From a virus (taxonomy: Duplodnaviria > Caudoviricetes): DNA of 48,532 nucleotides. The notes below the pieces were generated by a model. That model did no database searches and was not told the origin of the DNA. It saw only the letters and a program-made list of their open reading frames with translations. A program made the position numbers and the translations under genes. Where the stretch lies: IMG/VR virus record IMGVR_UViG_3300031860_000003, positions 1-48,532 of that record. One strand, written 5' to 3'. Every line of letters begins with the position of its first letter. Position 1 is the first letter of the stretch. Shown here in pieces: positions 3,561-36,699 of the stretch.

Positions 3561-5063
3561 TCACCGCCCGCGCCGTCTGGTTCCGCCTGCCAGCGCCGGC
3601 GTCATCATCATCGACGGCTCGCTGACCGGGACCACCATCACGAAGCCCTGCGCGTCGGTCGGGCTGAACTGATACAGGCCGATAGCACCGTCGTTGAACA
3701 GGTTGAAGTACAGGGTGCCCTCGGCCGGGTTGGAGTGATTCGCCGGCACCACCGCCAGCCCGTTGGTCGGGGTGATCGCGTTACCCGGATTGCTCGGATC
3801 GGAATAGTGCGGCATACAGTTCACTTCGCCCAGGTCGTTGCCGAAGCCGCGGCCGATCAGCGCGCCCGACGTCGGGTCGCCCAGGCGGATCTCCACACCG
3901 ATCTGCAGCGGGTTGGCCGAGAGCTCGAGGCCGAACGCACCGAGATGGCCCCACACCACCGGGGTCCACGGAAAGGCTTGCGGCGGAATCGGAAACGAGC
4001 CGATCGCGGCGCGCTGGGATAGGCCACTAAAGCCGGTGAACGAAGCCTCCGGCATGGAGTAGGGCGAGGGGATCAGCTGGGAGATCGCCACCGGCACCCA
4101 GACCGGGTAGTTCACCGTGGCACCGTTGGTGGCGGGCGGGGTCGCCAGTGTGCCCGTCGCCCCGGTGTCGGCGTAGGCGTTGGTGGTGACGGTGGCGATC
4201 AGGTGGTTCTCGCCGCCCGAGGCCAGGCCGCGGTAGAGGTTGTAGCTGTCCGCGCCCGGCACCGTGTCCCAGATCAGGTTGGCGGTCGATCCGGTGCCCA
4301 CCGTGGTCGAGCACTCGTTGGACGGAGTGGACTCCCCGGCCGCCGAGTTGACCGTGACCATCCAGAAGTATTCGCCGGACAGGCTGCCGCCGGAGGACAG
4401 GTGCGACACCGCCAGCCCGGTGGGCGGGCTGAGGTGACCGGCCACGGTGCGCCCGGTGTAGCCCAGCACGTCGCCGGGTGCCACGCCGCCGGACAGGTCG
4501 ACGTCGGGGCACAGCGCCATCGCCGGCGCCGGCCCGGTCGGGCCGACCGGGATGGACAGGTTCATGTTCCACGTCGGATACAGCGGGGTGCCGCCGATCG
4601 GGTCCACGTAGGACGCCATATCGGGCGGGATGATGTCCACCGACGGGGTGATGATCGGGCACGGTCCCGGCGGCCCGGGGGTGCCCAGCATGACCCGCCG
4701 CCAGCTCAGCCCGTACCAGATGTAGGCCGACGCCCCGATGATCGCGCCCTTGGAGTCCACGTCGTCGAGCAGCCAGAACTTGCCGATGTCGGCCTGGCTG
4801 TTCTGCAGCGTCTGCGGCAGGTCGCTCGGGTCGTCGACGCTCATGTCGTTTTCGAGCTTGAGCGCGAACGCCGCCGGGCCGGGCACGCCCTGATCGCCCA
4901 CCACCGCCGGGAACACCAGCGACCCGATGTCCCCGTAAATCTCGTAGGTCCCCGAGAACGGGGACTGTGAGTCGGGCGGGATGACCGACCCGAACAGGTA
5001 GGTGCCGACCAGGTAGGAGGCCACGAAGGACTGGTCGCCGGGGGCCGAGAGTGAGGTTGTCAT
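3561..5063 (-). CDS. Minor tail protein with short collagen-like GxxG motifs and an FN3-like insert
   Basis: 500 aa; GTPGPPGP; PPTGLAVS...YNLYRG...YADTG FN3-like pattern; position after the hub gene. Confidence 0.8.
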   Translation of the reverse strand: MTTSLSAPGDQSFVASYLVGTYLFGSVIPPDSQSPFSGTYEIYGDIGSLVFPAVVGDQGVPGPAAFALKLENDMSVDDPSDLPQTLQNSQADIGKFWLLDDVDSKGAIIGASAYIWYGLSWRRVMLGTPGPPGPCPIITPSVDIIPPDMASYVDPIGGTPLYPTWNMNLSIPVGPTGPAPAMALCPDVDLSGGVAPGDVLGYTGRTVAGHLSPPTGLAVSHLSSGGSLSGEYFWMVTVNSAAGESTPSNECSTTVGTGSTANLIWDTVPGADSYNLYRGLASGGENHLIATVTTNAYADTGATGTLATPPATNGATVNYPVWVPVAISQLIPSPYSMPEASFTGFSGLSQRAAIGSFPIPPQAFPWTPVVWGHLGAFGLELSANPLQIGVEIRLGDPTSGALIGRGFGNDLGEVNCMPHYSDPSNPGNAITPTNGLAVVPANHSNPAEGTLYFNLFNDGAIGLYQFSPTDAQGFVMVVPVSEPSMMMTPALAGGTRRRGR

Positions 5064-6663
5064 GGCACCACCCTTTGTGCGGTTGCTTGCAGGAAGCCCT
5101 CCCCGGAGAACAGCGGATAGGCCACGCCCTGTGGCGGTTTGGCGATCGGCCCCATCGGCTGCACCATGACGAACAACTGGGCCGCGGACGGGTTGAAGTC
5201 ATAGACCCCGATCTGGCCGTCGTTCCACAGGTTCGTATAGAGGGTGCCCATCGCCGGGTCGGTGTGGTTGGCCGGCACCACCGCGTAGCCGTTGGTCGGG
5301 GTGAGGGAGCGGTTCCGGTTGTTCTGGTTGTTCGCGCTCGAGGAGTAGTGCGGGTAGATGTTGATCCGGCCCAGCGTGTTGCCGATCCCGCGGGCCACCT
5401 GGATGCCCTGGGTGGGGTCGCCGAGCAGCACCTGCGCGCCGATCCGGAACGGATCGCCGGTGATGAATTCCAGCACGTCGTTGATCAGGTTGCCGCCGGA
5501 GTCGATGATGCCGATCACCGCCGACGACAGATCCGGTGGGATCAGGTTGGTGATGTCGGTGACGATCGGCGCGATCACCTGGGCGCCCAGCGTGTTGACG
5601 AACTCCAGCAGGGTGTTCGCCGCGCCCTGCAGGGTGGCGTTGATGTTGTTGACACCGACCGTGACCAGGTTCTCCAGGAATCCCTCGATGGTGGCCGGGT
5701 CGGCGTTGTAGGGGATCGGTGGGGTGGTGGCGCCGCCGACCGACAGGGTGAACGTGCCGCCCAGCGCGGTCACCTTGAGCAGCTGCTGGACGACGCGACC
5801 TGGGTGGTGTCCGTGCCGCCCAGGTGACCCCACACGATCGGCGTCCACGGATAGGGCTGCGGCGGGATCTGGAAGGAGCCGACACCGACCTGCTGGGCTA
5901 CCCCGCTGTAGGAGGCGAACGAGCCCTCCGGCATCGACCAGGTGGTCGGCAGCTGCGCGCCGATGCCGCCCGGGGCCCAGACCTCCTGGCCGGCCGCGGT
6001 GTAGCGCCCGGTGAACATCATCAGGTCCCCGTTGACCGGCGCGGCGGTGATTTCGTCGACGTCGGGGAAGTCGAAGATCGGGGTGGTCTGCCCGCACTGG
6101 CCGGCCGGGGCGGCCAGCTCGAACTCCCACGTCGGCGAGAGCCGCGGCCCGGAGGTGTTGACGAAGGACTTGTTCGGGTTGTTGCTCTCGTCGTAGGGCG
6201 GGATCAAATCGACGATCGGGGTGATGGCCGGCACCGGACCCGGCGGCCCGAAGCTGCCCATCATCATCCGGCGGTAGGCGGTGCCGTACCAGATGTACAT
6301 CGTCTGGCCGATCACCTGGCCCTGGTCGTTGAGGTCCTGCAGGACGTAGTAGCGCCCGATGTAGTCGGGGTTGTTGGGCAGCGGGACCAGGTCGGCCTCG
6401 GAGTTGACGGTGGGGTCGACGACCTCGCGGACCTGGAAGCCGATCTGGCCGGGCGGCCCCTGCGGGCCCTGCAGCGCGGCTTTGTCCAGGTCGCCCTGGT
6501 CGGCCATCACCTTCAGCGCCGCGGTGTAGCCGTTCGGGGTGTCGGGCATGGTGGTTTCGGCCGACACGTCCAGCTTGACGACGCAGTGGCCCAGCGGCAC
6601 CAGCTCGCCCAGCTGCGGCGGCGCCGGCGTCGGCACGCCCAGCGGATCCATCAGCGACGTCAC
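5060..6663 (-). CDS. Minor tail protein paralogous to 3561-5063, split by a 1-nt frameshift near 5795
   Basis: N-terminal part in ORF 5770-6663 and C-terminal part in the frame of ORF 5060-6670; both halves are collinear with the 500-aa neighbour. Confidence 0.8.
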
Positions 6664-10539: not shown

Positions 10540-13500
10540 TCACACCGGCACCCCCGCGCCGCCCGCCATCTCCGGCGCGCGACTCCACCGGTTGACCGCC
10601 TGCTGCGCGCGGTCCACGATCTGGTCGGGCGGCACGCTGTTGGCGTTGACGGTGATCTGCGGGCCGCCGGTCATCCGCTGGGCCTGGTTACTCAGCGCCC
10701 CGACGATGCCGCCCAGACCGCCGGGGCCCTGGCTGCCCGACATCCAGGAGGCGACCTCGGAGGGGGACCGCGGCGGCGGCATCCCGGGCAGCGTGCCGGT
10801 GCGCTGCTGGTAGTCCATCAGCGACGTGCGTGCCGGGTGCATCAGCCAGTCCATCGCCGTGGGCTTGCCGTCGGCCGACCACACCGCCGACACGGTCTGC
10901 GCGCCGTCCTGCGTGCCGTCCTGCGTGGCATACCCCGCGCCGCCCGCTCGGCTGCCGCGTCGCGGCCTAGGGGTCGGGGGCGGCTCCGGAGGCTGCCCCG
11001 GGAGCGGAATCACGTCCTGTGGTCCAACCGAGCGACCCAGGTAGCCGGACCAGCTCCCGATGTCACTCTGATGGAACTGCCCCGGGCGCGCTTGGCCGCC
11101 CCCTTGTCCTGACGGCGGCGCCGCGTGCGGCGCCGGGGGCGTCACCGGGGGTTGCTCCGGCGGTGGCGCGTTTGTCACCGGGCCGTTCTGGTCGTAGATG
11201 CCTTGCGACACGCCGTCCCTGATCAGCTCGCGGCGCCCGTCGGGGAGCATGTACCACCGCTCGTGGGTCGGGTCGAGTTTATGGCCGCCGAAGGTGTCTC
11301 CCTCGTCCGCTGGCGGAGGAACCGCCGGTGGGGCTTTCGGCGTATCGGCCTTGGCGTCCTTCTTCTTGTAGCGCCCCGGACCGATGTAGTCCCAGTTGGT
11401 TGCCGGGCCGTGCGCGTGGGCGTACTCACCCTGCGAGTTGGGCGCGTCGTCGCCGTAGACGTCGCGGCCCTGGGCGTCTTTGCTGCTGGGCGTTTCTTCG
11501 GTAGCCGGGAATGCCGTACTCGGGCCGGGCCCTGCCGGCACCGGCGGGGGTGTGGCGCCCACCGCCGGGGCGCCGCCGCCGGTGGCGGCGCTGCTTCTGC
11601 CTTCGCCCAGCTGATTGGCGATGCCCAGCGCGGCCGACGCGGTGCCGGCGAACAGCTTCCAGATGCCCCACTGCCACGGCGGTTTGCCGAACACGTCGCC
11701 GAACCCCAGCTCCTGGGCCATGCCCTTGATCAGGCCCGCGCCCATCGCGGCGGCGTTCTCGTCCGGGCTGACGGCCGCCTCCTTGGCTTTGCTCTCCCAC
11801 GGCGGCAGGTTGTCGAGTTGCTCGGCCTGGTCGACCTGGGCGTCGTGCAGGCGCTCATTCGCCTTGCTCAGCGCCTTGCTGGTCTCCTTCTCCTTGTTGA
11901 TGGCCTCGGTGAGTTCCTTCTTGGCTTTCGCCTCGTTCGTCGTCTGGTGCTGGTCGTCGGTCATGAGGTCGAGGTACTTCTGCCAGGTGTCGGGGAACTT
12001 CTGTTTCGCGTCGTTGACGACCTTGTCCCAGGCGTCGTTGGCGCTGCGCAGGCGGGCCAGCGCGTCGGTTTCGGCCTGGCTCGCGTCATGCAGGGCCTGC
12101 GCATCGTCGGTGGCTGTGCGGGCCCGCATCTCGGCCTCGTGCAGCCACTTGGTGAAGTCACGGCGCACCTCGGGGGTCAGGCTCGCGCCCTTGTCGGGCA
12201 TGTCCATCGGGTAGAGGAACCAGCCGTAGGGTGTCTCGACGGCCTGCGCTGCCGGGCGCGGTGCCCCGGCCGGGGCGATCGGCGCCGGCCAGCCCGCCGG
12301 CGGCGGCGTCAGCGGCTGGCCCGGCCCGACCGGCGCGGGCACCTTCGGCAGGTTCGGGTCGCCGTGCACGGTCTTATCGACCAGTACGACCCTCGGTAGG
12401 CCGCCAATCTGGTCCCCGCCGCCCTGGTCGTCCCCGCCGGTGCCGCCGCCGGGCTGGCGCCGCAGCAGCCGGCCCTGGTTCATCGCGTGCAACACACCGG
12501 GCGGCGCCGCACCGGGTGGAACCAGCAGCTCGCCCGGCTCGGTGATGATCGGCACCATCCCGCCGCCCGCCATCCCGAGGCCCATCTGACCCAGGACGTC
12601 GCGGTACTGCGCCGTGCGATGCCGGTTCAGGATGAACGTCCCGGCCGGCACGCTCATCGGCACGCTGTCGCGGCCCGGCCAGTGATAACCCTTGATGATG
12701 CCGCCGTTGGCCATGCCGAGCAGGCCGCCCTCCTGGACCATCGCGACGGTGTGGGTCGTATCCGGCGTATCCGGCGCGGGGCCCCAGCCCGGGGCCCAGG
12801 TCATCGGCTTGTCGGGACCGTGCCATACCTTGCCGGTGAAGTTCTTGCCCTCTTTGTCGGAATACACGTCCCCGGCGCCGTCGACCCAGCCTCCGGCGTC
12901 GTCGACGTGAGTCATGTGCTCGTAGCCGCCCACGGGTGCCGGTGATTTTCTCTCGCTTGCCTTTGTGCCCCACCAGTCGACCGGTGCGCCCTTGGTGTCC
13001 TTGGTGATGGCCGCCGTCGCGGGGGGTCCGGCGGCCGGGGGACCGGCCGGAGGGTTGGCGGCGCCGGGCGAGGATGCGGCCGCGGCCGGCGAGGCCGACG
13101 TGGCCTTTCCGCTCACCCAGTCCCAGAACGCCTCCGGGTGGGGCAGCTTGAAACCCAGCGCCTCGAACACGCCCTGGACCAGACCGGCGAACAGGGGAGC
13201 CAGCGGCCCCGCAGCGTGACCCGTACCGCCCGCACCGCCCGCGCTGCTGACCGCGCTGACCAGAGACACGTTAGAGCCGGAGTTGAAAGTCAACCCGTTA
13301 CCGGAGGTGTTCCAGTTCGCCGGCAGCGTGCCGCTGGTGGCGAGCTGCGCGAGGTCCGGCGCGGAACCGGGCACCATCGCGAGGTGGACGTGGTCGTGGT
13401 GTTCCCCCAAGGTCTTCGCGTCGTAATAGGAGTTCCCCTGCAGCTTCCAGTCGCGGATGAATTTGCCGTCGCCGATGTTGAAGTCGGTGTTCCAGCCCCC

Positions 13501-16500
13501 ACCAGCGTGGATCAGCTGGGCGATGTGGGGTCCGAAGTTGCTCGCCATGTAGGTGGCGAAGCGGGTTTCCGCCGGCGTGTCGGTGCCATCGGAGAAGTCC
13601 CCGGCCATGCCCTTGGGGTGATACCCGCTGTCGATCGAGTGGCGCGCCCTGCCCGAGGTCAGCGTCAGACCCATCCCGTGCGCGATGACGTCGGCGCCCA
13701 GGATCTCGGCGTCCACGCCCTGGATGTCGTCGTGGCTGTAGTCACCGCTCACCAGGCCACCGGGCAGGAACCCGCGGATCCCCTCCTTCTTGTGGATGGC
13801 CATGCCGAGGCCCGCCGCCAGCTCGTCTGCGTTCTCCCGCTTCGGGTCGGGCGGGATTCCCAGCCAGTCCCGGCCATCCGGGTGAGCGCGGAAGATGTTG
13901 GCAGCTATGTCGGCCTGCTGCTGCGGGGTCGCCATGCCGGGATGCCTCACGTCGAACTTCAAGCCGCCGTTGTCGGCCCACGTCGCCGGGGTGATCTGGA
14001 ACAGCCCCTCGGCCTCGTTCCAGCCGGTATTGACATCGACGTAGCCGTGCTGGGTGACCCTCGGGTCGCCGCCGGACTCGCGCATGATCAGGTGCGCCCA
14101 CGCCGCGTTCGGGGACGTCCACAACCCGGCGCCGGTGGGCGATATCGGCACCCCGCCGCCGAGCATGTGTGACCACACCGAGGTTTTCGACACCGGCAGC
14201 CCGACGTGCGGGGCCAGGTGGGACTCGGAGTGATACGACAGCGACGACGTCGCGCCGCCGTGCTGGAAGCCAGCCATGCCACCGGCAATATTGCTTATGC
14301 TGCCGAGTCCGGGTCCATAGATGGTTGTCAGCCACGGCACCATGCCATGCCAGCGGCTGTACTTCGGCGGATAGTCAGGGTCGAAATGGCCGGGGTTCTC
14401 GGTGACGTCGCGGGGGATCGGGCCACCAGTCGCGTTGTGCATGGGCAGATCGAAAGACAACCCAAGATAGTTACGCTCCAGGTAATCCAGCGCCCACTCC
14501 TCCTGGTCGTGGCCACTGTCGGCATGAGCACCGCCGCCACCCGCGAAGCCGGGAATCCGCAGATACTTTCCCACGAAGGGGATGTTCGTCAGGCCCAGCC
14601 CGTACCGGTGCCCCGGGGTCTGGGCGGAAACGCCGGTGTTCAGAATGTCGATGCCCCAGTTGAGGAACTCCCGCACCGGCCCCAGTTGGCGCTGCGACCC
14701 CACCGAGGTCATCGAGGTGTCGATTCTCATCCGCGGGTCGAAGTTGCTTCCCCCGGTCGGCAGGTTCGGATCAAAGGGCGGTGGCCAAGGCAATCGCCGG
14801 CGAGATGAGCCGGGCGCCCCGGGGTCATCGCCGCGCTCGCCAACATCGCCGCCGGGCTGGAAGGCGAAACCGCCACCGGCGAAACCGAGGAACTTGTATC
14901 CGGCGCTGCCCACACCCGGAACGGGGCGGTCCTCCTTCAGCCCCACATGGCCGCCGGTGGCGTAATTGCGATTGGCCGCCCACTGAACATCCCAGACGTG
15001 CTGCGGGCCGCCGTGGTAGCGGCCCTTCATGTAGTTCAGCATCGCCGTCACCTGCTGATACGGGGTCAGCGCCTGCGCCGCGGCGATGCTGGTGACCTGC
15101 GGGAAGCCGTAAGCCCGGTAATTCGACAGCGTCAACTGGCCCAAACCGACCGAGTTGTCACCCCGCTGCGCGTTGATGTCGGAGTAGTTGACGTTGGCCG
15201 GGTTCCACGACGATTCGCCTTGGATGATGTTGGACAGCGGCGCGAACTCGCTTTGCGGGAAGCCACCCGCCAGCATCCCGGCGAACCCACCGCCCAGCAG
15301 CGCCTGCAACGCCTGGTCCTGAACCGGACCGCCCGGGCCCGGTGCTGCCGCCCCGGCGACATTGAGCGTGGTGGAACCCGCGGCCAGGTTCAGCTTGACG
15401 TCGATCGCCACCCCTTCGGTGGTCTGCAGATTCGACGGGATACCGGCCGCGGTCATCACGTCTTCGGCGCTCTTGCGGTCCTGGTCCTTGACGGCCAGGT
15501 TGGTGGGCAGCGCCACCCCGGTCTCGGTGACGCCGGCCTGCGTCACCTCGCCCTGCAACTTGTCGGGTATCCCGGCGCTCGTCAGGGTGTCGGCCGCGCT
15601 CATCGGCAGCGGCGCTATCACGTTGATCGCGGCGGGCAGCGCGATAGCCCCGGTCGCACCGGCGAACGCGCCGCCCTGCATGCTGGCGGGGATGCCGGCG
15701 GCATCCAGGACGGTGCCGCCGTTGGCGAACGCCTGCAGGTTCATCGCGTCCAACATCGGCCCGTACTTGGCCACCGCGGGCAGGTTCATCACCTTCTCGC
15801 CCGCGGTCGCCCGGATCAGCACCTTGTCGGTGCCGCCGGGACCGGTGACGGTGCCACCGGACTGGAAGAAGGCCCCGACGATCGGCAGGCTCTTGAGGAT
15901 GGCCTTGCCCAGGTTTATTCCGCCGCCGCCGCCGTCCGCTCCTTCGTCGTCCCAATGCCCCGGCGAGATCCCGTGACCGGGCTCGCGGTGACCGGGCACC
16001 CAGTGGCGCTCGTGCTTCTTTTCCTCGGTGCTCGGCGGGGCGCCGCCGAAGTTGAGAATCTCGTCGAGGATGCGCTGCTGGTCGGGCGGCAGCTTCTGCA
16101 GGTCGAGGAAGATTTTGGCGTGAATCCCGTCGGTGCCGGCCAGTTCCTCGGGGACCCCGATCCCCTTCGTCAGGAACTCCTTGACGGCCTGATCGGGCAG
16201 GTTGTCGATCGAGAAGTTGACCTTCTTGACGATCTCGGGGAACTTGTCCGGCCCGAACAGGGTGTTCAGGTAGTCCTGGAGGTCGTCCATCTCCTTCTTG
16301 GTGTGCGCGGAGAAGCTGCGGATCTGCCCGGTCGACTTGTCGGCGTCAACGGTGATGCCCAACCCGGCCAGCTGATTGGTGACCTGTTCGAGCGCCGCCG
16401 GGTCGATCTTCATCCCACCCTCGAGGCTGCCGGAGATCGCCTGCTGCAACTTGGGGGCGTCGCGTTGGATGGTGCCGCGCCAATCCTTGAAGGGATCCTC

Positions 16501-19395
16501 GGTGCCGGGCATGTTGATCGGCGCCCCGAAGGTGGCGCGGGTGGCCTGCCACATCGCCCGCGCGCCCTGGGCCATCGTGGTCAGGGCGGCCAGCTTGGGC
16601 TCCAGGCTCGCGATCCCGTCGCCCAGCTCGTCGAGTCCCTCGGCGCCGCTGCGCATCCAGCCGCCGACATCGAGGTCGAGCATGGACTTCAACGCGCCCA
16701 TCGCGTGCACCGCGCCCTTGGTGACCTCGCCCAGCCCGGGGACGAACAGCGCCAGTTGCGCGGTGAACGTGATGAGCGCGGCATCGGCCGCCATCATCGC
16801 CAGCACGATCGCGTCCTTGGTGGACTCGACAAACCCGCTCATCTCGCGCAGCATCTTCGCCAACCAGTGGCTGATCCGCGAGCCCCAGTCCAGCAGCTTC
16901 TCCCCGATCGTCCCGACGAAGCCGATGAACTCGACCTGATGGGTCTGCAACCAGGTGCTGACCTTGTCGCCGATACCGGTCAGGCCGCGCACCAGCCCCA
17001 GTCCCATCGGCGCCAGCGCGGCCACCACCTGCTGGGAGAGCACCTCCAGCTCCTGGCCCAGGTCCTTGGTGGCCTGCAGCGCCTCGTCGATCGGCTCGTG
17101 CAGCTTGACGCCCTCCTTCGCCAACGCGGCGTTGACCTCGTCGACGGTGGCGGGGATCTCCTTGAGGTCGCGCAGCCACTTGGTCAGCACCTCGGCGCCC
17201 TTGGGTGAGGTGGCCAGGCCGATGGATTGCACAAATCTTTCGGCGGTGTTCTCGTCGGCGGCGTCGCGGACGATGTCCACCACTTCCTGCAAGGACATCC
17301 CCGTCTTGGCCAGCTCGTCTTGCATGTGCGCCAGGGTGAACGGGAAGCGTTGCAGCGCAGGCTGTCCGAGGATCTGCTGGATCTTGCCCATGATGAAGGC
17401 GGCCTGGTCCATGTTGTAGCCCATGTCGTTCCACGCGATCGAGGTGGCGTCCAGGTCGTGGGTGAGGTCGTTGATGGCGATCCCGGTCATCCGCTCCAGG
17501 TTGATCATCATCGTGAGCTCGTCGTTCGCCTTCTCGGCGGGGATGTTGAACGAGGTGAGCGCGGCGCTGAAGTTGTCGACGTTGATCTTGGTGTCGCCCA
17601 GGAGCTCGTTGCCCTCGGCCAGCGTGGTCGCCAACTCCTTCAGCTGGGCGTTGGTCAGCCCGGCGCCGTCATTGAGGACCGACAGCCGCTGAGAGAGCTC
17701 GCCCACCACATTGGCGACGTCCTTGAAGTGCACCAGATCACCGGAGGCGGCGATGTCCTGCACGATGGTCAGGTACTCGGACAGGTGCTCGAGGCCCAGC
17801 GTCTGGCCGGAGATGGTGCGGGCCGCCTGCTGCCACTTGTTACCGATGTCGAGGATCGCCTCGCCGAACTGCCCGGCGATCGACGTGTAGTCCTGGATCG
17901 CGGAGAACACCTGGCCCAGCACGCCCGAAATCTCCCCGGTGACCGAGGTGATCATCCCGCCCAGGATCGGGATCTTCCCGATGGTGGAGTCCAGGTAGGA
18001 GTTGACGGCGTTCAGCGGCATCTGAACCGCGGTCTGGATACCCTCCAGCCCGGCCCCGATCATCTGCTGAATGTTGGGCATCTTGCCCTCGACGACGCTG
18101 GTGAAGCCGCCCATCAGGGCGTTGCCGGCGTCCTTACCGACCTTCTCGAACGCCTGAAACTCGGTGTTGACCAGCTTGACGAAGTTGTGGATCGAGGACA
18201 CCGCGATATCGACGGCCAGCGCGATGCCCGCGGCGATGCCCGACTTCATCGCCAGCGACATCCCCTTGGCGGCCTCGCCGGCGGCCTGCGCGCTCTGGTC
18301 CGAGAACGTCTTCCAGCCGGAGAGCATCTTGCCGCCCATCTGGGCGGTGATGTTCTGCAGGTCTCTGGAGCCTTGAAGCATCCTTTCCGAGGCGTTGAGG
18401 CTGAACATCTCGGCGGCCTCGGCGCCGGTCTGGCCGAAGAATCGCGCGACCGCCGGACGCAGCGATGCCGGGGTGAACTTCTGCACCAACGGCAAAAACG
18501 CCCGGTCGAAGCCCGAGCCCATTGACTGCGCCGCTGCGGCGCCGACCTCCTCGAACCCTGCGGTTTTCCCGCTGGCGAGCATCCCCCGAAAGGCTTCTGC
18601 CGACAGGATCTGCTTGATGGTGGGCACGAACCCGCCCGCATAGCTCATCGCGGCGCGTTCGCCCTCGGAGAGCAAGGTCGCATTGGCGGCGGCGGTGGCT
18701 TCCCGGTAGGCGTTGGCCAGCTGATCGGTCAGCCCGCGCGCCATGATGGCCTGCATCCCGCCGGTGGACCACAACTCGCTCATGGTGGTGCGGATGCCGC
18801 CCTTGATGGCCTCGCCCATCCGCTCCCCGGCGGCGGCGGCCTGCATGGTCGGGATATTGAAGAACTGCTGGGCGATGGTCTGGCGGATGTCGCCGATGCC
18901 CCGCGAGGCGCCGCGCATGACGGTGCGGCCCCACTGCTCACCGACGGTCTCGGCCTGGGCGGCGTCGAACGCCTCCCGCATCTCCTTGTTCAGCGAGGCC
19001 CGCAGCGCCGGTCCCACCTTGGACAGCGAGCGGGTGATGTCGGCCGCGATCGCATCCGACGGCAGCGCCATCGCGCCCTGGAACGCGGTCTGCATCTCGC
19101 GCTGCAAACCTGCGCGCAGCGCCGGGCCGACCTTGCCCAGCGTGCGCTGCACGTCGGCGGTCAGGCTCTCCTCCAGCGAGCGGCCCAGCAGGCCCCGAAT
19201 CGAGCCGGCCTCCACCGCGGCCGCCATCGCGCCCTTGATGACCGGGGTCAGCGCCGACGGCAGCGACGACGCCATGCCCTGCGCCAGGCCCGACGCGGCC
19301 TGCGCGCCGATCGCCTGCATCTGTGAGTAGATGCCGGCGGCCGACGCGGCGACGTCAACCCAGGAGACGCCCTGCCCGGCGCCCGGCGCGCTCAC
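10540..19395 (-). CDS. Tape measure protein with C-terminal cell-wall hydrolase-like domains
   Basis: 2951 aa, Ala/Gly-rich helical N-terminal half, follows the chaperones; two transglycosylase-like (ES..N/DP...GLxQ) and one HxH peptidase-like segment. Confidence 0.93.
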
Positions 19396-32263: not shown

Positions 32264-32345
32264 GGGGTAATGGTCCCGCGCTAGTTTCCGTTACTGGGGT
32301 CAAGCACATTCCCCGGCGTGTCGCATTTCGCTTTACGCGAAACAG

Positions 32346-32421
32346 TAGCGCGGGTCGGATTCGAACCGACGATTGCTTGGTTATGAGCCAAGAGGGATAG
32401 GCCTGGCTTCCCTACCGCGCT
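32346..32421 (-). tRNA. tRNA-Met(CAT)
   Basis: Cloverleaf; anticodon loop CTCATAA. Confidence 0.9.
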
Positions 32422-32423
32422 CG

Positions 32424-32495
32424 CTGAGGTGCCTGGACTCGAACCAAGATCAACGGAGCCAGAGTCCGTTGTGCTGCCGTTTACACCACACCTCA
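32424..32495 (-). tRNA. tRNA-Gln(CTG)
   Basis: Cloverleaf; loop CTCTGGC. Confidence 0.9.
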
Positions 32496-32499
32496 TTCG

Positions 32500-32572
32500 C
32501 TGACCTGGGAGGAGTCGAACCTCCAACTACTGGATTAACAGTCCAGCGTTCTGCCAGTTGAACTACAGGCCA
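32500..32572 (-). tRNA. tRNA-Asn(GTT)
   Basis: Cloverleaf; loop CTGTTAA. Confidence 0.92.
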
Positions 32573-32576
32573 CCGG

Positions 32577-32649
32577 CGCCTCCTGCCGGGATCGAACCGG
32601 CGATCTCCTGGATGAGAGCCAGGTGAGATGACCGCTACTCCAAGGAGGC
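32577..32649 (-). tRNA. tRNA-Glu(CTC)
   Basis: Cloverleaf; loop CTCTCAT. Confidence 0.9.
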
Positions 32650-32650
32650 G

Positions 32651-32723
32651 TGATTCCGATCGGACTCGAACCGATGTCGTCCGGCTTGAAAGGCCGGCAG
32701 GCTAACCGCTACCCCACGGAACC
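32651..32723 (-). tRNA. tRNA-Glu(TTC)
   Basis: Cloverleaf; loop CTTTCAA. Confidence 0.9.
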
Positions 32724-32727
32724 GGGG

Positions 32728-32799
32728 TGCGCCCGGTCGGGCTCGAACCGACGTCTCAGGATTAAAAGTCGAGAGCTAAACCATCTCAGCTACGGGCGC
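32728..32799 (-). tRNA. tRNA-Lys(TTT), two anticodon-stem mismatches
   Basis: Loop CTTTTAA; stem CTCGA/TCCTG. Confidence 0.82.
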
Positions 32800-32841
32800 C
32801 TGATTGGGCATGCGTTCAGGCTCCGGTTTACGCTGTCGCAT
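32776..32841 (-). CDS. Candidate leader peptide MRQRKPEPERMPNQAPVAEMV
   Basis: GAAGGAG SD, TATACT -10 at 32876-32881; codons match the downstream tRNAs. Confidence 0.7.
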   Translation of the reverse strand: MRQRKPEPERMPNQAPVAEMV

Positions 32842-32907
32842 TTCAGGCTCCTTCCGTGCTCGGGATGTCGCGTTGAGTATAACCTCCCACCGCGCCACAC
32901 TGGCGCA

Positions 32908-33954
32908 ATGGACGCTCAATCCCCGCCGCCGCCGGCGATCCCCGCCGATGACGACGAGCTGCACCAGATGCTGGTCGCCAAATTCCGCAGCCGCACCATC
33001 AGCTCCTGGGCGCTCACCGCACCCGCCATCCCCAGCCTGATCGACGAGTACATCGACACATGCGACAAGATGCTCGTCCCGGTGTCCCGGCCCTGGGCGT
33101 CGTTGACCCGCGAGGACAAGCGCGACATGCTCGCGCCCACCATCCAGGAGGCATTCGACGCCTCCCCCCGGTCGCGCGTCACCCTCGACTGGGATTCCAA
33201 CACCGACGTCCTGCGTATCTCCGCGCGGGTCCAGAGCATCAGCGACAGCTACGACTCCTGGCTGGACGATCGCGGCTGGGCCCCGTTCGGCACCCACGCC
33301 GACGCGCGCGTGTGGCTGTTGGCCGAAGAACTCTCGGGGGGCCGGCGCGACATCCCCATCCTGGACATCGGCGCCGGCGTCGGCCGCAACGCGATCGCGC
33401 TGGCCCGGCACGGCTACCCGGTCGATGCGGTCGAGCTGGCCCCGCGGTTCGCCGCGCAGATCCGTGCCAACGCCGACTACCTGGAGCTGACCAACATCCG
33501 CGTCCTGGCCTGCGACGTGTTCGACACCGAGGACCTGCGCGACGACTATCAGCTGATCTTCGCCGCCGAGGTGGCCACCGACTGGCAGTTCGCCCAGTGC
33601 CGCAACCTGTTCGAGCTCGCCGCCAAGCGGTTGGCTCCCGGTGGCCTGCTGCTGTTCTCCGCGTTCATCGCGCGGCAGGGTTACACCCCCACCCAGGTGG
33701 CGCGCGAGCTCGGCCAGCACGCCCTGTGCCGCCCGTTCACCGCCGACGAGATGACCGAGGCGGCGGCGGGCCTGCCGCTCGAGCTGATCGCCGACGACTC
33801 GGTCTACGACTACGAGAAGGGGCACCTGCCCAAGGAGGCGTGGCCGCCTGCAATATGGTTCGAGGCTTGGGCCACCGGCAACAACCTGTTCGCCGGCGCG
33901 CCCGATGCGTCCCCGATGCAGCTGCGCTGGCTGGTCTACCGGCGCAACTACTGA
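32908..33954 (+). CDS. Class I SAM-dependent methyltransferase
   Basis: ILDIGAGVGRN motif I, VDAVEL and LAPGGLL; high GC3. Confidence 0.9.
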   Translation: MDAQSPPPPAIPADDDELHQMLVAKFRSRTISSWALTAPAIPSLIDEYIDTCDKMLVPVSRPWASLTREDKRDMLAPTIQEAFDASPRSRVTLDWDSNTDVLRISARVQSISDSYDSWLDDRGWAPFGTHADARVWLLAEELSGGRRDIPILDIGAGVGRNAIALARHGYPVDAVELAPRFAAQIRANADYLELTNIRVLACDVFDTEDLRDDYQLIFAAEVATDWQFAQCRNLFELAAKRLAPGGLLLFSAFIARQGYTPTQVARELGQHALCRPFTADEMTEAAAGLPLELIADDSVYDYEKGHLPKEAWPPAIWFEAWATGNNLFAGAPDASPMQLRWLVYRRNY

Positions 33955-33976
33955 GTGTCCACGGGGTGGACACCTG

Positions 33977-34046
33977 CTGCTCCGCCAGGATTCGAACCTG
34001 GACAACGAGAACCAAAATCTCGACGGCTGCCGGTTACCACGGAGCA
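33977..34046 (-). tRNA. tRNA-Gln(TTG), shortened D arm
   Basis: Loop TTTTGGT; intact T and acceptor arms. Confidence 0.8.
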
Positions 34047-34047
34047 G

Positions 34048-34117
34048 TGCCCCCGAGTGGAGTCGAACCACCGCAACCGAGTTTCGGAAACTCAGGGCCA
34101 GATCCGCTGGCGAAGGC
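34048..34117 (-). tRNA. tRNA-Arg(CCG), atypical D arm
   Basis: Loop TTCCGAA; D hairpin CCAG/CTGG directly abuts the acceptor stem. Confidence 0.7.
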
Positions 34118-34148
34118 TAATTGCGAATTCCGAAATTGGAAATTAGCG

Positions 34149-34222
34149 CCCCGCCGGAGGGATTCGAACCCCCATTTCATGGCTTAGAACACCACCGCTG
34201 ATCCAGATTCAGCTACGGCGGG
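34149..34222 (-). tRNA. tRNA-Arg(TCT)
   Basis: Cloverleaf; loop GTTCTAA. Confidence 0.82.
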
Positions 34223-34271
34223 CAGGCGAGACTGAGCGTTGTCGCCTTCGTCTCGCCTGCCGTCGCATCAT
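34209..34271 (-). CDS. Candidate leader peptide MMRRQARRRRQRSVSPARRS
   Basis: GGTGAGG SD; uses all six Arg codons and both Gln codons. Confidence 0.7.
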   Translation of the reverse strand: MMRRQARRRRQRSVSPARRS

Positions 34272-34350
34272 GACCTCACCTAACCGAACCAGACCACAGC
34301 CTGCCGTGCCCTATCATGCCCGACCTTGCCAGACCTATCCGGACCGGACC
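34271..34350 (-). repeat. GGY-NN pentamer array 2 (13 of 16 units perfect)
   Basis: Minus strand GGTCC GGTCC GGATA GGTCT GGCAA GGTCG GGCAT GATAG GGCAC GGCAG GCTGT GGTCT GGTTC GGTTA GGTGA GGTCA. Confidence 0.88.
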
Positions 34351-34371
34351 ATACGGCATCACATCACTGCG

Positions 34372-34444
34372 TGCCCTCACGAGGAATCGAACCCCGGGCC
34401 TCCTGGTCCGTAGCCAGGCGCTCTCTCCGCTGAGCTATGAAGGC
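34372..34444 (-). tRNA. tRNA-Arg(ACG)
   Basis: Cloverleaf; loop CTACGGA. Confidence 0.9.
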
Positions 34445-34445
34445 G

Positions 34446-34519
34446 TTCCTGCTCCTGGGATCGAACCAGGGTCCTTCTCCTTATCAGGGAGCTGCCCCTA
34501 CCAACTGGGCCAAGCAGGA
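34446..34519 (-). tRNA. tRNA-Ile(GAT)
   Basis: Cloverleaf; loop CTGATAA. Confidence 0.88.
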
Positions 34520-34520
34520 C

Positions 34521-34595
34521 TGGCGACCCATACGGGGAACGATCCCGCGACCTCCGGCTTGACGGGCCGGCGCTCTACCACTGAGCTAATGAGCC
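34521..34595 (-). tRNA. tRNA-Asp(GTC), encoded CCA
   Basis: Loop CCGTCAA; T loop ATCGTTC. Confidence 0.85.
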
Positions 34596-34671
34596 AGGTG
34601 GGCAACTCCCCTCCGACGAGAGGGGCGGCAGTTACCAGATCCGTAGCTGGGTTCGCCGATGGTAGTTACCC
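34596..34671 (-). ncRNA. Unknown structured RNA, copy A
   Basis: Fills the Gly-Asp spacer; homologous to 35673-35769. Confidence 0.55.
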
Positions 34672-34672
34672 G

Positions 34673-34745
34673 AGCACCCGACGGGCTACGATCCCGCGGC
34701 CTCCACGTTGGCAACGTGGCGCTCTGCCTGCTGAGCTACGAGTGC
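34673..34745 (-). tRNA. tRNA-Gly(GCC)
   Basis: Loop TTGCCAA; T loop ATCGTAG. Confidence 0.88.
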
Positions 34746-34774
34746 CTGCGCTTCGCTGATTCAGTTATTGTACG

Positions 34775-34850
34775 AGCCGCAGACAGGAATCGAACCTGCG
34801 CTCTGCTTGCTTACAAGGCAAGTGCTACAGCCAACATGAGCTACTGCGGC
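34775..34850 (-). tRNA. tRNA-Thr(TGT)
   Basis: Cloverleaf; loop CTTGTAA. Confidence 0.88.
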
Positions 34851-34853
34851 CTG

Positions 34854-34926
34854 TGCGCTCGGCAGGGATCGAACCTGCGGCCTGAAGATTAAGAGTCAAC
34901 AGCTCTACCGACTGAGCTACGAGCGC
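34854..34926 (-). tRNA. tRNA-Lys(CTT), two anticodon-stem mismatches
   Basis: Loop CTCTTAA; stem GTTGA/TCTTC. Confidence 0.85.
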
Positions 34927-34985
34927 GGATCAACCGGGGCGGTCGTCGGCTTTCGCCGCCCCTGTGTGCGCGTTCGTCGCATCAT
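34917..34985 (-). CDS. Candidate leader peptide MMRRTRTQGRRKPTTAPVDPRS
   Basis: AAG plus four Thr codons directly upstream of tRNA-Lys(CTT) and tRNA-Thr(TGT). Confidence 0.6.
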   Translation of the reverse strand: MMRRTRTQGRRKPTTAPVDPRS

Positions 34986-34986
34986 G

Positions 34987-35058
34987 TGTCCCGAGCAGGT
35001 ATCGAACCTGCGGCCTCCACCGTGTCGGGGTGGCGCTCTCCCGCTGAGCTACCAGGAC
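34987..35058 (-). tRNA. tRNA-Val(GAC)
   Basis: Cloverleaf; loop CCGACAC. Confidence 0.87.
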
Positions 35059-35139
35059 GGGGCCCAGGCTTTTGATGACGGTGAACCTGAGCCCGAAACA
35101 CCGGACGGTCAAGTCTCGTGGCGCCACGGCTTGACCCAG

Positions 35140-35211
35140 TGTCCCGTCGTGGTATCGAACCACGGGCCTCCTGCGTGTGAAACAGGCGCTCTCCCGCTGA
35201 GCTAACAGGAC
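35140..35211 (-). tRNA. tRNA-Val(CAC)
   Basis: Cloverleaf; loop TTCACAC. Confidence 0.88.
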
Positions 35212-35212
35212 G

Positions 35213-35285
35213 TGCCAAGACGTGGAATCGAACCACGGCCTCCGGCTTTTCAGACCGGCGCTGCTACCAACTGAGCTATCGAGGC
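35213..35285 (-). tRNA. tRNA-Phe(GAA)
   Basis: Loop CTGAAAA; two acceptor-stem mismatches. Confidence 0.83.
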
Positions 35286-35286
35286 G

Positions 35287-35360
35287 TGGACCAGGGCGGA
35301 TTCGAACCGTCATCCGTCTCCTTGCAAGGGAGCTGCTCTGCCAATTGGAGCTACAAGCCC
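35287..35360 (-). tRNA. tRNA-Ala(TGC)
   Basis: Loop CTTGCAA; G3:U70 identity pair. Confidence 0.88.
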
Positions 35361-35450
35361 GTATGAAGTTGGGTCCGGTCCTTCGCGTCTTTCGTTCCGG
35401 CTACCCCCACCGAGGTCTGACCTCGCGCTGGTGGACGAGGGGCGCTAGCG

Positions 35451-35521
35451 AGCGGATGACCGGAATCGAACCGGTGTCGGCAGCTCGGAGGGCTGCTGCG
35501 CGGCCACTACGCCACACCCGC
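35451..35521 (-). tRNA. tRNA-Gly(TCC)
   Basis: Loop CCTCCGA; U73. Confidence 0.85.
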
Positions 35522-35596
35522 TGGGGTAACCGACCGGAATCGAACCGGCGTCCTCGGGGCCACATCCCGATGCTCTGCCATTGAGCTACGACTACC
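35522..35596 (-). tRNA. tRNA-His(GTG), G-1:C73 and encoded CCA
   Basis: Cloverleaf; loop ATGTGGC. Confidence 0.9.
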
Positions 35597-35597
35597 G

Positions 35598-35669
35598 AGC
35601 GCCCGGCGTGGGTCGAACACGCTTAAGCGGGTTTGCAGCCCGCCACCTGATCCGTTCGGTCACAGGCGC
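35598..35669 (-). tRNA. tRNA-Cys(GCA)
   Basis: Loop CTGCAAA; U73. Confidence 0.88.
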
Positions 35670-35672
35670 TTT

Positions 35673-35769
35673 GGTGGTGGCGCTCCCCTCCGGCGAGAGG
35701 GGCGACACGCTCCCCGAGTGGGGAGCTCATACCGGAACCGTAGCCGGATTGGCCGTTGGTAGCGTCACC
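35673..35769 (-). ncRNA. Unknown structured RNA, copy B
   Basis: Homologous to 34596-34671 with an extra hairpin; starts 7 nt after TGGACC-N17-TACCGT. Confidence 0.55.
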
Positions 35770-35816
35770 GTGTACCACGGTAAACCCTGCCGCCGACAAG
35801 GTCCATCCATTTTCCG

Positions 35817-35897
35817 TACCGGCAGCAGGAGTCGAACCTGCACAGCTCACGCCACGGATTTACAGTCCGCTTCCCTCGCCACATGGGATGCGCCGGC
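35817..35897 (-). tRNA. tRNA-Tyr(GTA)
   Basis: Loop CTGTAAA; extended variable arm. Confidence 0.88.
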
Positions 35898-35898
35898 G

Positions 35899-35969
35899 CA
35901 CGCTCCCCAGGAATCGAACCCAGACCAAGAGGTTTGGAAGCTCTTGTGCTACCACTACACCAGGAGCGC
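35899..35969 (-). tRNA. tRNA-Trp(CCA)
   Basis: Loop TTCCAAA; G73. Confidence 0.85.
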
Positions 35970-35973
35970 CTCG

Positions 35974-36047
35974 TCGGGGAGGCAGGATTCGAACCTGCGA
36001 TGTCTTGATCCCAAATCAAGTGGGCTGCCTGGCTGCCCTACACCCCG
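35974..36047 (-). tRNA. tRNA-Pro(TGG)
   Basis: Loop TTTGGGA; C1-G72, A73. Confidence 0.9.
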
Positions 36048-36080
36048 GTTTGGTCCCGGCGTGTGTCCACGACCGGGCGG

Positions 36081-36116
36081 CTAGCGCCAGGGATACGGTC
36101 GTGGGGCGAAGAACAT
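36081..36116 (-). CDS. Candidate leader peptide MFFAPRPYPWR
   Basis: TATGAT 7 nt before the ATG (leaderless spacing); Pro/Tyr/Trp codons upstream of tRNA-Pro, -Trp and -Tyr. Confidence 0.72.
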   Translation of the reverse strand: MFFAPRPYPWR

Positions 36117-36132
36117 GGTGATCATCATAGCG

Positions 36133-36204
36133 TGCGCTTCCAGGGATTCGAACCCTGACTGGGCCGGGTTTAAGCCAGCTGCCTCTGCGTTGGGCTAGAA
36201 GCGC
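36133..36204 (-). tRNA. tRNA-Leu(TAA), short variable loop
   Basis: Cloverleaf; loop CTTAAAC. Confidence 0.85.
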
Positions 36205-36205
36205 G

Positions 36206-36278
36206 TACACCCTCTGGGATTCGAACCCAGACTTGACCGGGTTTGAGCCGGATGCCTCTCCCGTTGGGCTAAGGGTGC
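36206..36278 (-). tRNA. tRNA-Leu(CAA), short variable loop
   Basis: Cloverleaf; loop CTCAAAC. Confidence 0.85.
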
Positions 36279-36284
36279 TTGCCG

Positions 36285-36358
36285 TACTCCCGGTGCGATT
36301 CGAACGCACACTGTCTGGTTCCTGAGACCAGTGCTTCTGCCAGTTGAGCGACGGGAGC
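36285..36358 (-). tRNA. tRNA-Leu(CAG), short variable loop
   Basis: Cloverleaf; loop CTCAGGA. Confidence 0.85.
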
Positions 36359-36387
36359 AGGTTTCTTGTTTCTTTGTTTCGTAAAAG

Positions 36388-36476
36388 CGGAGGGCGGAGG
36401 TCATGCTCCCCGAGCGCCATCACGCGCTACCCGGTATTCGACGCCGGTCGCAGGCTATCCCGCTGCTTCACCCTCC
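36388..36476 (-). tRNA. tRNA-Ser(CGA), atypical T arm
   Basis: Loop GTCGAAT; long variable arm AGCGC/GCGCT; T arm lacks TTC. Confidence 0.7.
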
Positions 36477-36477
36477 G

Positions 36478-36562
36478 AGGAGGGCTACGGGATTGAACCG
36501 TAAGCGGTGAGGCTTGCTCGGGTTAGCAACCCGGCTCCGGCGACCAACCGGAAAAGCCCTCC
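36478..36562 (-). tRNA. tRNA-Ser(GCT)
   Basis: Loop TTGCTAA; long variable arm. Confidence 0.82.
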
Positions 36563-36566
36563 AGAC

Positions 36567-36614
36567 TTAGCTAAGTCGTAAGGGACTAGATGACAGCAAT
36601 CGGTGGTCGCGCAC
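36567..36614 (-). CDS. Candidate leader peptide MRDHRLLSSSPLRLS
   Basis: TACACT 7 nt before the GTG; 8 Leu/Ser codons upstream of the Ser/Leu tRNAs. Confidence 0.75.
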   Translation of the reverse strand: MRDHRLLSSSPLRLS

Positions 36615-36631
36615 GTCAAGCAGTGTAGCAG

Positions 36632-36699
36632 TGCCGCACAAGGGATTTGAACCCTTCCCGTTCGCTTGGTTAGGGCTCACGGTCTGCCGTCGGTGCGGC
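36632..36699 (-). ncRNA. tRNA-like element or pseudo-tRNA
   Basis: Perfect 7-bp acceptor and AAGGG-TTCAAAT-CCCTT T arm; no canonical anticodon arm. Confidence 0.5.

Follow-up and report, generated by a model that had tools for sequence, protein, structure and literature searches.

Can a phage tune the supply of its own tRNAs, and could a small open reading frame (ORF) that runs into the first gene of a tRNA block be the means? The reason why phages carry tRNA arrays is itself described, in the accessible text of PMC10264068, as a question that has been open for decades. The window (the whole stretch of DNA analyzed here, 48,532 nt) is a 48.5-kb soil virus record whose portal, prohead protease, capsid, and tail genes all lie on the minus strand. 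The host is likely a mycobacterium, since the best cultured-phage matches of the terminase are mycobacteriophage terminases (~49%) and the window has a methyltransferase gene with mycobacterial homologs. Immediately upstream of the terminase, a tRNA array spans 4.2 kb (32345-36562, minus strand), with 28 tRNA genes detected by ARAGORN and 30 when two added by hand are counted. A dense cluster of at least 20 tRNA genes is the threshold for a tRNA array unit of mycobacterial mobile elements, and the window array has this density.

The array has close relatives. A terminase scan returned 18 loci, 15 of which were examined: two are the same phage, three (L005, L006, and L007; 85-88% identity) have the same array, one has the last tRNA only, and nine have no tRNA in the DNA sampled. 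No tRNA was found in the DNA sampled around the terminase of eight relatives at 70-88% terminase identity. Only four distinct arrays of this family were available. The features of the focal locus are the following:

32876..32881, minus strand: putative promoter of the block, a TANNNT-type -10 hexamer TATACT (sequence)
32854..32860, minus strand: upstream arm AGCACGG, predicted partner of tRNA-Lys nt 5-12 (invariant in 4/4 copies; consensus fold)
32848..32854, minus strand: Shine-Dalgarno (SD) sequence GAAGGAG (sequence; invariant in 4/4 copies)
32842..32851, minus strand: box 1, GGAGCCTGAA, which overlaps the SD and pairs in the predicted free-RNA lock
32776..32841, minus strand: leader ORF, MRQRKPEPERMPNQAPVAEMV then stop, 21 codons from the ATG at 32841
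32815..32824, minus strand: box 2, GGAGCCTGAA, over the Glu codons, a predicted back-up lock once box 1 is covered
32788..32803, minus strand: target strand, made of the final 4 nt of the leader and tRNA-Lys nt 1-12
32345..32799, minus strand: six-tRNA block Lys(UUU), Glu(UUC), Glu(CUC), Asn(GUU), Gln(CUG), Met(CAU) (ARAGORN, Rfam RF00005)
32899..33954, plus strand: gene for a class I SAM-dependent methyltransferase, inserted after tRNA-Gln(UUG) and before the focal leader (Pfam PF13649)

The initial annotation had placed TATACT, GAAGGAG, and an ATG-initiated leader ahead of tRNA-Lys, and all of them are found there on the minus strand. It had written the SD as directly joined to the ATG; both elements are present, and the junction is not, as six bases (CCTGAA) lie between them. 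The repeat that it had reported over the SD and over the Glu codons was recovered at 32851-32842 and 32824-32815. We take TANNNT to be the -10 consensus of these promoters. Such hexamers have a background of 0.84 per kb, and each of the three homologs also has one upstream of its leader; a sigma-70 promoter scan called no promoter at the focal leader. Fourteen codons of the ORF precede tRNA-Lys, and its TAG stop (32778-32776) falls within the D-loop of this tRNA. The six tRNAs are separated by gaps of just 0-3 nt and their order is identical in L005, L006, and L007.

In these three relatives the leader directly follows tRNA-Gln(UUG), and the methyltransferase, whose mycobacterial homologs are at ~43-47%, is missing from the corresponding site. 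The insertion is no part of the switch. The gene is reversed within the window array, and a 70% identical one lies upstream of the array in L006 (1851-2850). A short hairpin beside tRNA-Gln remained on the Gln side of the insertion.

As had been proposed, every one of the six tRNAs downstream is represented by a codon in the leader, all within 13 codons: codons 3, 5, 7, 9, 11, and 13 are CAG, AAA, GAG, GAA, ATG, and AAT, and codons 2, 4, 6, 8, 10, and 12 each encode Arg or Pro. AAT is decoded by tRNA-Asn(GUU) through wobble, and the CAU tRNA was counted as a match to ATG, a count that does not distinguish elongator Met, initiator, and Ile2. Three codon-sampling nulls put six matches out of six in 13 codons at p = 2e-5, 1.5e-5, and 3.5e-5, and reading in the other two frames yields 1/6 and 0/6. 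A looser null, which takes the best ATG/GTG ORF in a dinucleotide-shuffled 120-nt spacer, gives p = 0.016 for the focal leader, and across spacers few rows reach p <= 0.05 under it (with blocks drawn without tRNA-Arg(CCG)). The focal leader has the short ORF with a start signal and the operon-matched regulatory codons by which leader-peptide transcription attenuators are recognized. Two compositional traits were also seen in the set of leaders, homologs counted in: CGA makes up 35 of 227 leader codons vs 7.7 per 1000 in the phage structural genes, and 38 of 62 matching codons are preceded by Arg or Pro, vs 49 of 150 other codons.

The focal leader is not alone. We searched the spacers of the four related arrays with a start rule that ignores codons (TANNNT, 6-8 nt, and ATG/GTG; or an SD; or an ATG at a tRNA 3' end), which gave candidate starts in 19 spacers. 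In 17 of them the ORF covers all, or all but one, of the tRNAs of its block, and the matches fall off at the block border. The misses are the Cys block of the window and a 110-nt insertion in L005. This Cys block has 0/3 matches under the rule, and 2/3 in a 19-codon ORF (p 0.09-0.35); of the eight blocks in the window, three lack a leader that matches. Four sister leaders complete the set in the window:

34209..34271, minus strand: (M)MRRQARRRRQRSVSPARRS then stop, with AGA, CGG, and CAA, before Arg(UCU), Arg(CCG), and Gln(UUG); 3/3 matches
34917..34985, minus strand: MMRRTRTQGRRKPTTAPVDPRS then stop, with AAG and ACA, before Lys(CUU) and Thr(UGU); 2/2 matches, the block end being set at a TANNNT spotted by eye past tRNA-Thr
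36081..36116, minus strand: MFFAPRPYPWR then stop, leaderless type (TATGAT + 7 nt), before Pro(UGG), Trp, and Tyr; 3/3 matches
36567..36614, minus strand: (GTG)RDHRLLSSSPLRLS then stop, leaderless type (TACACT + 7 nt), before Ser, Ser, Leu, Leu, and Leu; 4/5 matches, TTA among them

When the five leaders were reassigned onto the eight blocks of the window, the true assignment alone, out of 6720, scored this high (the failed Cys ORFs being excluded as leaders and the Cys block retained as a target). Leader codons also change along with block content. More precisely, AGA is present in the leaders of the window, L006, and L007, whose block has Arg(UCU). The L005 leader, which precedes Ile(GAU), Arg(ACG), Arg(CCU), Arg(CCG), and Gln(UUG), has ATT, AGG, CGG, and CAA, no AGA, and 5/5 matches; here the Arg(CCU) that replaces Arg(UCU) is our manual reading of a gene without an ARAGORN name. 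In L006, Leu(UAA) is separated by 181 nt and the TTA codon of the leader has become TTC.

The leader at 34917-34985 begins two bases past the acceptor strand of tRNA-Val. The same spacing, with the ATG exactly two bases past the acceptor strand of the preceding tRNA, is found in six leader copies (window 34985; L005, L006, L007). The order is discriminator, C, ATG, which places the start codon where the next tandem tRNA would begin. Processing of the upstream tRNA might create a leaderless message at these sites.

Over 61 nt the leader is 90-95% identical between the window and L005, L006, and L007, vs 74-76% for tRNA-Lys and 60-80% for the other five tRNAs of the block, save one identical Asn gene. 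Fourfold terminase positions are identical in 170/255, 165/253, and 183/262 cases (65-70%). Differences in the focal ORF are confined to codon 4 and to a 3-nt loss of codon 12, and the matching codons are invariant. The 3-nt deletion, in L005, leaves the frame intact, and length differences in the three ORFs that extend into a tRNA are all multiples of 3. We conclude that the focal leader is a real and conserved regulatory feature within a system of five leaders. It probably acts as a translated codon sensor.

How could such a sensor act on tRNAs? In folding models of all four copies, the 5' end of tRNA-Lys is taken up by box 1 as long as the RNA is free (-22.8 to -28.3 kcal/mol) and by box 2 once box 1 is masked (-15.9 to -18.2 kcal/mol), which bears out the earlier proposal that either box can pair there. 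The strand concerned, TCAGGCGCC (32803-32795, minus strand), straddles the tRNA-Lys(UUU) 5' end at 32799. A further arm takes part in the lock: AGCACGG, located upstream of the SD, pairs with CCGUAGCU. In the predicted free fold of the focal leader, the upstream arm, box 1, and the AUG region are part of one lock that hides the SD and the AUG. The initial annotation had viewed the two boxes as a candidate two-state switch: both pairings are indeed predicted, yet each takes up the tRNA strand, which makes both of them predicted OFF states and not the two states of a switch. An ON state would need a ribosome paused over box 2. Since box 2 doubles as Pro-Glu-Pro-Glu codons, its conservation is no evidence of pairing.

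The predicted capture of the first tRNA recurs across leaders: in minimum-energy folds, its 5' strand is usually the arm that closes a long hairpin formed with the leader. When the tRNA strand was swapped and the leader hairpin kept, the 5' 13-mer of the own tRNA ranked in the top 9 of 134-135 in 17 of 25 leaders vs 0 of 20 control spacers; the 25 leaders contain homologs and are not independent. The window copy of the focal leader is one of the eight exceptions, ranking 45/134 because of a C at tRNA position 4, and its homologs rank 4, 5, and 9. Plain leader-tRNA duplex energy is better than that of shuffles (p < 0.05) in just 4/25 leaders. In full-tRNA folding (two rows dropped, no shuffled control), the free leader cuts the acceptor-stem probability to at most 0.21 in 17 of the 23 cases where the tRNA folds alone. 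Two-sided compensatory changes were found in none of the pairs of three leader alignments (0/24 for the focal one, 0/20, and 0/19).

We then placed ribosomes on the four focal copies in a barrier model where only the RNA 3' of the ribosome folds. A stall at AAA gives acceptor-stem probabilities of 0.75, 0.95, 0.13, and 0.63; the values are 0.68-0.98 at GAG and 0.98-0.99 at GAA, and the stem forms at ATG in 3/4 copies. With the ribosome at codons 1-3, the three homologs stay at or below 0.10 (0.00-0.09 at codons 1-2), and the box-2 lock of the window is leaky (0.50-0.73). If pairing around the ribosome is permitted, the three homologs are locked at every codon (<= 0.27). In mycobacteria, RNA is cleaved ~15 nt 5' of the A site at AAA-stalled ribosomes, according to the accessible text of PMC6620280, and such cleavage helps the assumption that the ribosome acts as a barrier. 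Folding of tRNA-Lys leaves the sensing of Asn and Gln unexplained, because ribosomes stalled at AAT or at the last CAG cover its 5' strand, so that the acceptor is not formed, and because box 2 of the homologs is still free when the ribosome stalls at the first CAG.

These elements can be assembled into a mechanism. The free leader would bind the tRNA-Lys 5' strand and thereby hold the block in its off state. A pioneer ribosome would read the leader; if it ran through, or never advanced, the RNA would lock and the block would be terminated or degraded, the back-up lock of box 2 holding while the ribosome sits only at the start. Upon shortage of a charged tRNA, the ribosome would pause on the matching codon and cover the boxes, the tRNA would fold, and the output of the block would rise. 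Release is predicted with the ribosome at AAA, GAG, GAA, or ATG. We regard it as probable, if less so than the sensor itself, that codon-stall release of the tRNA-Lys 5' strand raises block output in this way. The leader is likely translated, and the proposed direction of its response is likely too. Stalling of mycobacterial ribosomes at AAA upon cleavage of tRNA-Lys(UUU) is described in PMC6620280 as far as its accessible text goes, and background on RNase Z and RNase P can be found in the corresponding part of PMC10673834. For the polar step that would extend the effect over six tRNAs, our preferred candidates are precursor decay and Rho-dependent termination on the first tRNA in its unfolded state, since the leader has no U-tract terminator.

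A wider reading is tentative and, in our opinion, somewhat less probable than not. It holds that the leaders are terminator-free attenuators in which the acceptor strand of the regulated tRNA is the switching strand, that each block monitors the charged tRNAs of the host one isoacceptor at a time, that blocks are released only by stalls on their own codons, that the array is an inducible counter-defence against tRNA-cleaving immunity, and that some AUGs are exposed by processing of the upstream tRNA.

The strongest rival keeps the translated sensors and places the output in termination or pausing at a leader hairpin or Rho site; the paired tRNA strand would just form the base of this hairpin, tRNA folding being irrelevant. 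It would explain how one leader controls all six tRNAs, and the folds of leader plus tRNA start, with z of -2 or lower in 19/25, agree with it. So do the Pro/Trp/Tyr leaders, which have trp-like 1:2, 2:3, and 3:4 alternatives with the tRNA strand as region 4. That these leaders are mostly not released at equilibrium counts against the mechanism proposed above. Against the rival, mycobacterial polymerase generally needs a U-tract for termination, and from leader start to tRNA nt 30 all leaders have at most 3-5 T per 8-nt window. The terminator scan was empty at the focal leader, i.e., it found no intrinsic terminator and none of the hairpin with U-tract by which attenuators are also defined. 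We consider this rival unlikely.

Release of the tRNA-Lys strand could alternatively be a local, post-transcriptional event: cleavage 5' of a stalled ribosome would remove the upstream arm and box 1, RNase P would mature the first tRNA, and the remaining codons would just broaden the trigger. Cuts at this position relative to stalled ribosomes are reported in mycobacteria (PMC6620280, accessible text), and comparison of the two folding models indicates that release in the focal homologs requires the 5' part to be out of play. This reading leaves unexplained why codons for tRNAs two to six persist and track the block. Propagation of misfolding from tRNA to tRNA along the tandem genes, like dominoes, was also considered and is unsupported, as the ranks are scattered. 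We judge local cleavage improbable.

It is very improbable that the response has the opposite sign, with fast translation by working tRNAs opening the lock as a self-test or positive feedback. Several ORFs do end inside the first tRNA, where a passing ribosome would melt the lock, but with a ribosome sitting at those stops the acceptor strand is covered (probability 0), and RNA left free returns to the locked state; the known leader attenuators described in 10.1101/834739 and PMC13236596 respond to stalling.

Scarcely any weight falls on an account without translation (triplets by chance, remnants, T-box-like specifiers, or a repeat that binds a protein as DNA): 10-nt repeats are unremarkable per se (19 of 606 80-nt window tiles contain one) and conservation of nearly every base is compatible with a nucleic-acid constraint, but the matches lie in a single frame behind an SD or leaderless-type start, length changes are in-frame, GGAGCCTGAA has exactly two copies within the whole window and is missing from the sister leaders, and Rfam, where only tRNAs reach thresholds, gives neither a T-box nor a leader, even with E relaxed to 1. 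A T-box riboswitch was specifically rejected for the focal leader, which has no Rfam match and is just ~70 nt long.

Leader-peptide transcription attenuators are classically represented by trp, thr, ilvGMEDA, and pheST. The closest working model for the phage leaders is found in another group, the leaderless short-ORF attenuators with polycysteine of mycobacteria (10.1101/834739, accessible text). As described there, a short, often leaderless ORF senses charged tRNA through ribosome pausing, in the same host group, and pairing of the ORF with a downstream strand is the off state, with no intrinsic terminator. Whereas these attenuators hide the ribosome-binding site of a protein gene and sense with a run of one amino acid, the phage leaders would hide a tRNA acceptor strand, regulate tRNAs, and mostly have one codon per isoacceptor. 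Next come terminator-type leader-peptide attenuators such as mycobacterial ilvB1 (PMC13236596, accessible text), which share multivalent regulatory codons, alternative helices, and the opposition between a ribosome at the stop and a stalled one. Unlike them, the phage leaders have no U-tract terminator, their products are tRNAs and not enzymes, and several of the ORFs end in the first regulated gene. Lacking both a terminator and a downstream ribosome-binding site, the phage leaders fall outside both attenuator classes.

Other tRNA arrays offer more distant parallels. The stress-induced L-array of Anabaena (trn operon) is an accessory tRNA array that is presumed to stay silent as long as translation is unimpaired; in the accessible text of PMC8421152, promoter repeats together with a hypothetical repressor are credited with the control of the whole operon, and neither a leader nor attenuation is mentioned, whereas control in the phage would be block by block and codon-specific. 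In phage tRNA counter-defence (cluster C1, PMC10264068; T5, PMC11555353), arrays that include Lys(UUU) could replace cut host tRNAs. In the accessible portions of these two papers the explanations are anticodon loops that are resistant, or a promoter that is strong, with no sensing step, and accounts of phage tRNAs and mycobacterial arrays are likewise given without leader control in the accessible portions of PMC10264068, PMC10865867, PMC12803027, and PMC11555353. Our literature search, which mostly covered journals other than subscription ones, found no published leader-ORF control of tRNA genes.

Similar leaders occur in six cultured mycobacteriophages (Cali, Colt, Tonenili, ScoobyDoobyDoo, Sparky, and StAugustine), and none is annotated in the records examined. 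With the codon-blind rule, a leaderless-type ORF precedes Pro/Trp/Tyr in Cali (3/3 matches) and Tonenili (2/3 strictly), another precedes Gln/Asn in Colt (2/2), and StAugustine has two leaders (3/5 and 4/6 strictly). Taken one by one these leaders are weak (p 0.008 to 0.31). Further leaders were recognized by eye: two in Sparky, for Pro/Trp/Tyr and Ser/Ser, and one in ScoobyDoobyDoo before Trp/Pro/Tyr, outside the 130-nt window of the rule. Other candidates given by the rule had no convincing match in Cali (1), Tonenili (2), ScoobyDoobyDoo (3), Phendrix (3), and Stigma (6), and the rule gave no candidate in pCBMA213_1, DirkDirk, Lolly9, and Nadezda. Putative leaderless starts (TANNNT, 6-7 nt, ATG/GTG) are found in two of the window sisters and in seven leaders of cultured phages, and the focal ORF is SD-led. 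Cali and StAugustine also have in common an unannotated element of ~55 nt with complementary ends, in the spacer after a tRNA block; it is possibly a small tRNA-like RNA.

Pattern searches at larger scale returned few tRNA-associated loci. The repeat pattern matched nine loci over viral contigs (two of the same phage and seven without tRNAs), the leader pattern five loci that were all previously known, and a metagenome scan one locus, the same phage at 99.98%. A genome scan gave 53 matches, none with the leader continuation. A second leader pattern gave 32 loci, four with tRNAs, of which two were known, and a Pro/Tyr/Trp pattern had scattered matches over 401 genomes, with a tRNA in 0 of the 30 loci retrieved. 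By chance, we also found a 22-codon leader upstream of a tRNA block (4976-5484, minus strand) in an unrelated AT-rich viral contig. It matches 5/6 downstream tRNAs (Leu, Leu, Tyr, Ser, Cys, Ser) and is followed by a hairpin and T-run, i.e., it is a terminator-type version.

The phage leaders appear to be a new form of ribosome-mediated attenuation, with an unusual target and apparently an unusual output. As they list the codons of each block, the array would be a feedback-controlled supply, which favours counter-defence or shortage over plain codon compensation. If the proposed mechanism is true, the leaders unlock exactly those tRNAs that are in short supply. Output through tRNA folding, and not through a terminator or a ribosome-binding site, seems likely, and would if true be a new end point for ribosome-mediated attenuation. 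The idea is testable in cluster C phages, Sparky, and StAugustine, where such leaders are also unannotated and which all grow on M. smegmatis. Codon-matched leaders could moreover act as compact reporters of the shortage of a single isoacceptor.

The analysis of the array gave several further observations. A tRNA-Arg(CCG)-like gene (34045-34117, minus strand), whose D-arm apparently begins directly after the acceptor strand, is missed by Rfam and by ARAGORN at its default score. It recurs in L005, L006, and L007, and has close unannotated homologs in Cali and Tonenili. A tRNA-Ser(CGA)-like gene (36387-36476, minus strand) is also missed by ARAGORN and Rfam. Ahead of the array (36631-36699, minus strand) there is a tRNA that scores low and whose anticodon is CUA (amber); a CUA tRNA is annotated in cluster C records. 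Two spacers (34596-34671 and 35670-35815, minus strand) have in common a structured motif that has a C-rich/G-rich hairpin at its end; L005 contains related text, and there is no Rfam match. Between the last tRNA and the terminase genes, a conserved element (32285-32342) is also found in L005, L006, and L007, inverted in the latter. Elsewhere in the window, a 2951-aa protein of the tail region (10540-19395, minus strand) has two transglycosylase-like domains, and the region at 39.8-43.3 kb contains an HNH gene along with two further methyltransferase-like genes.
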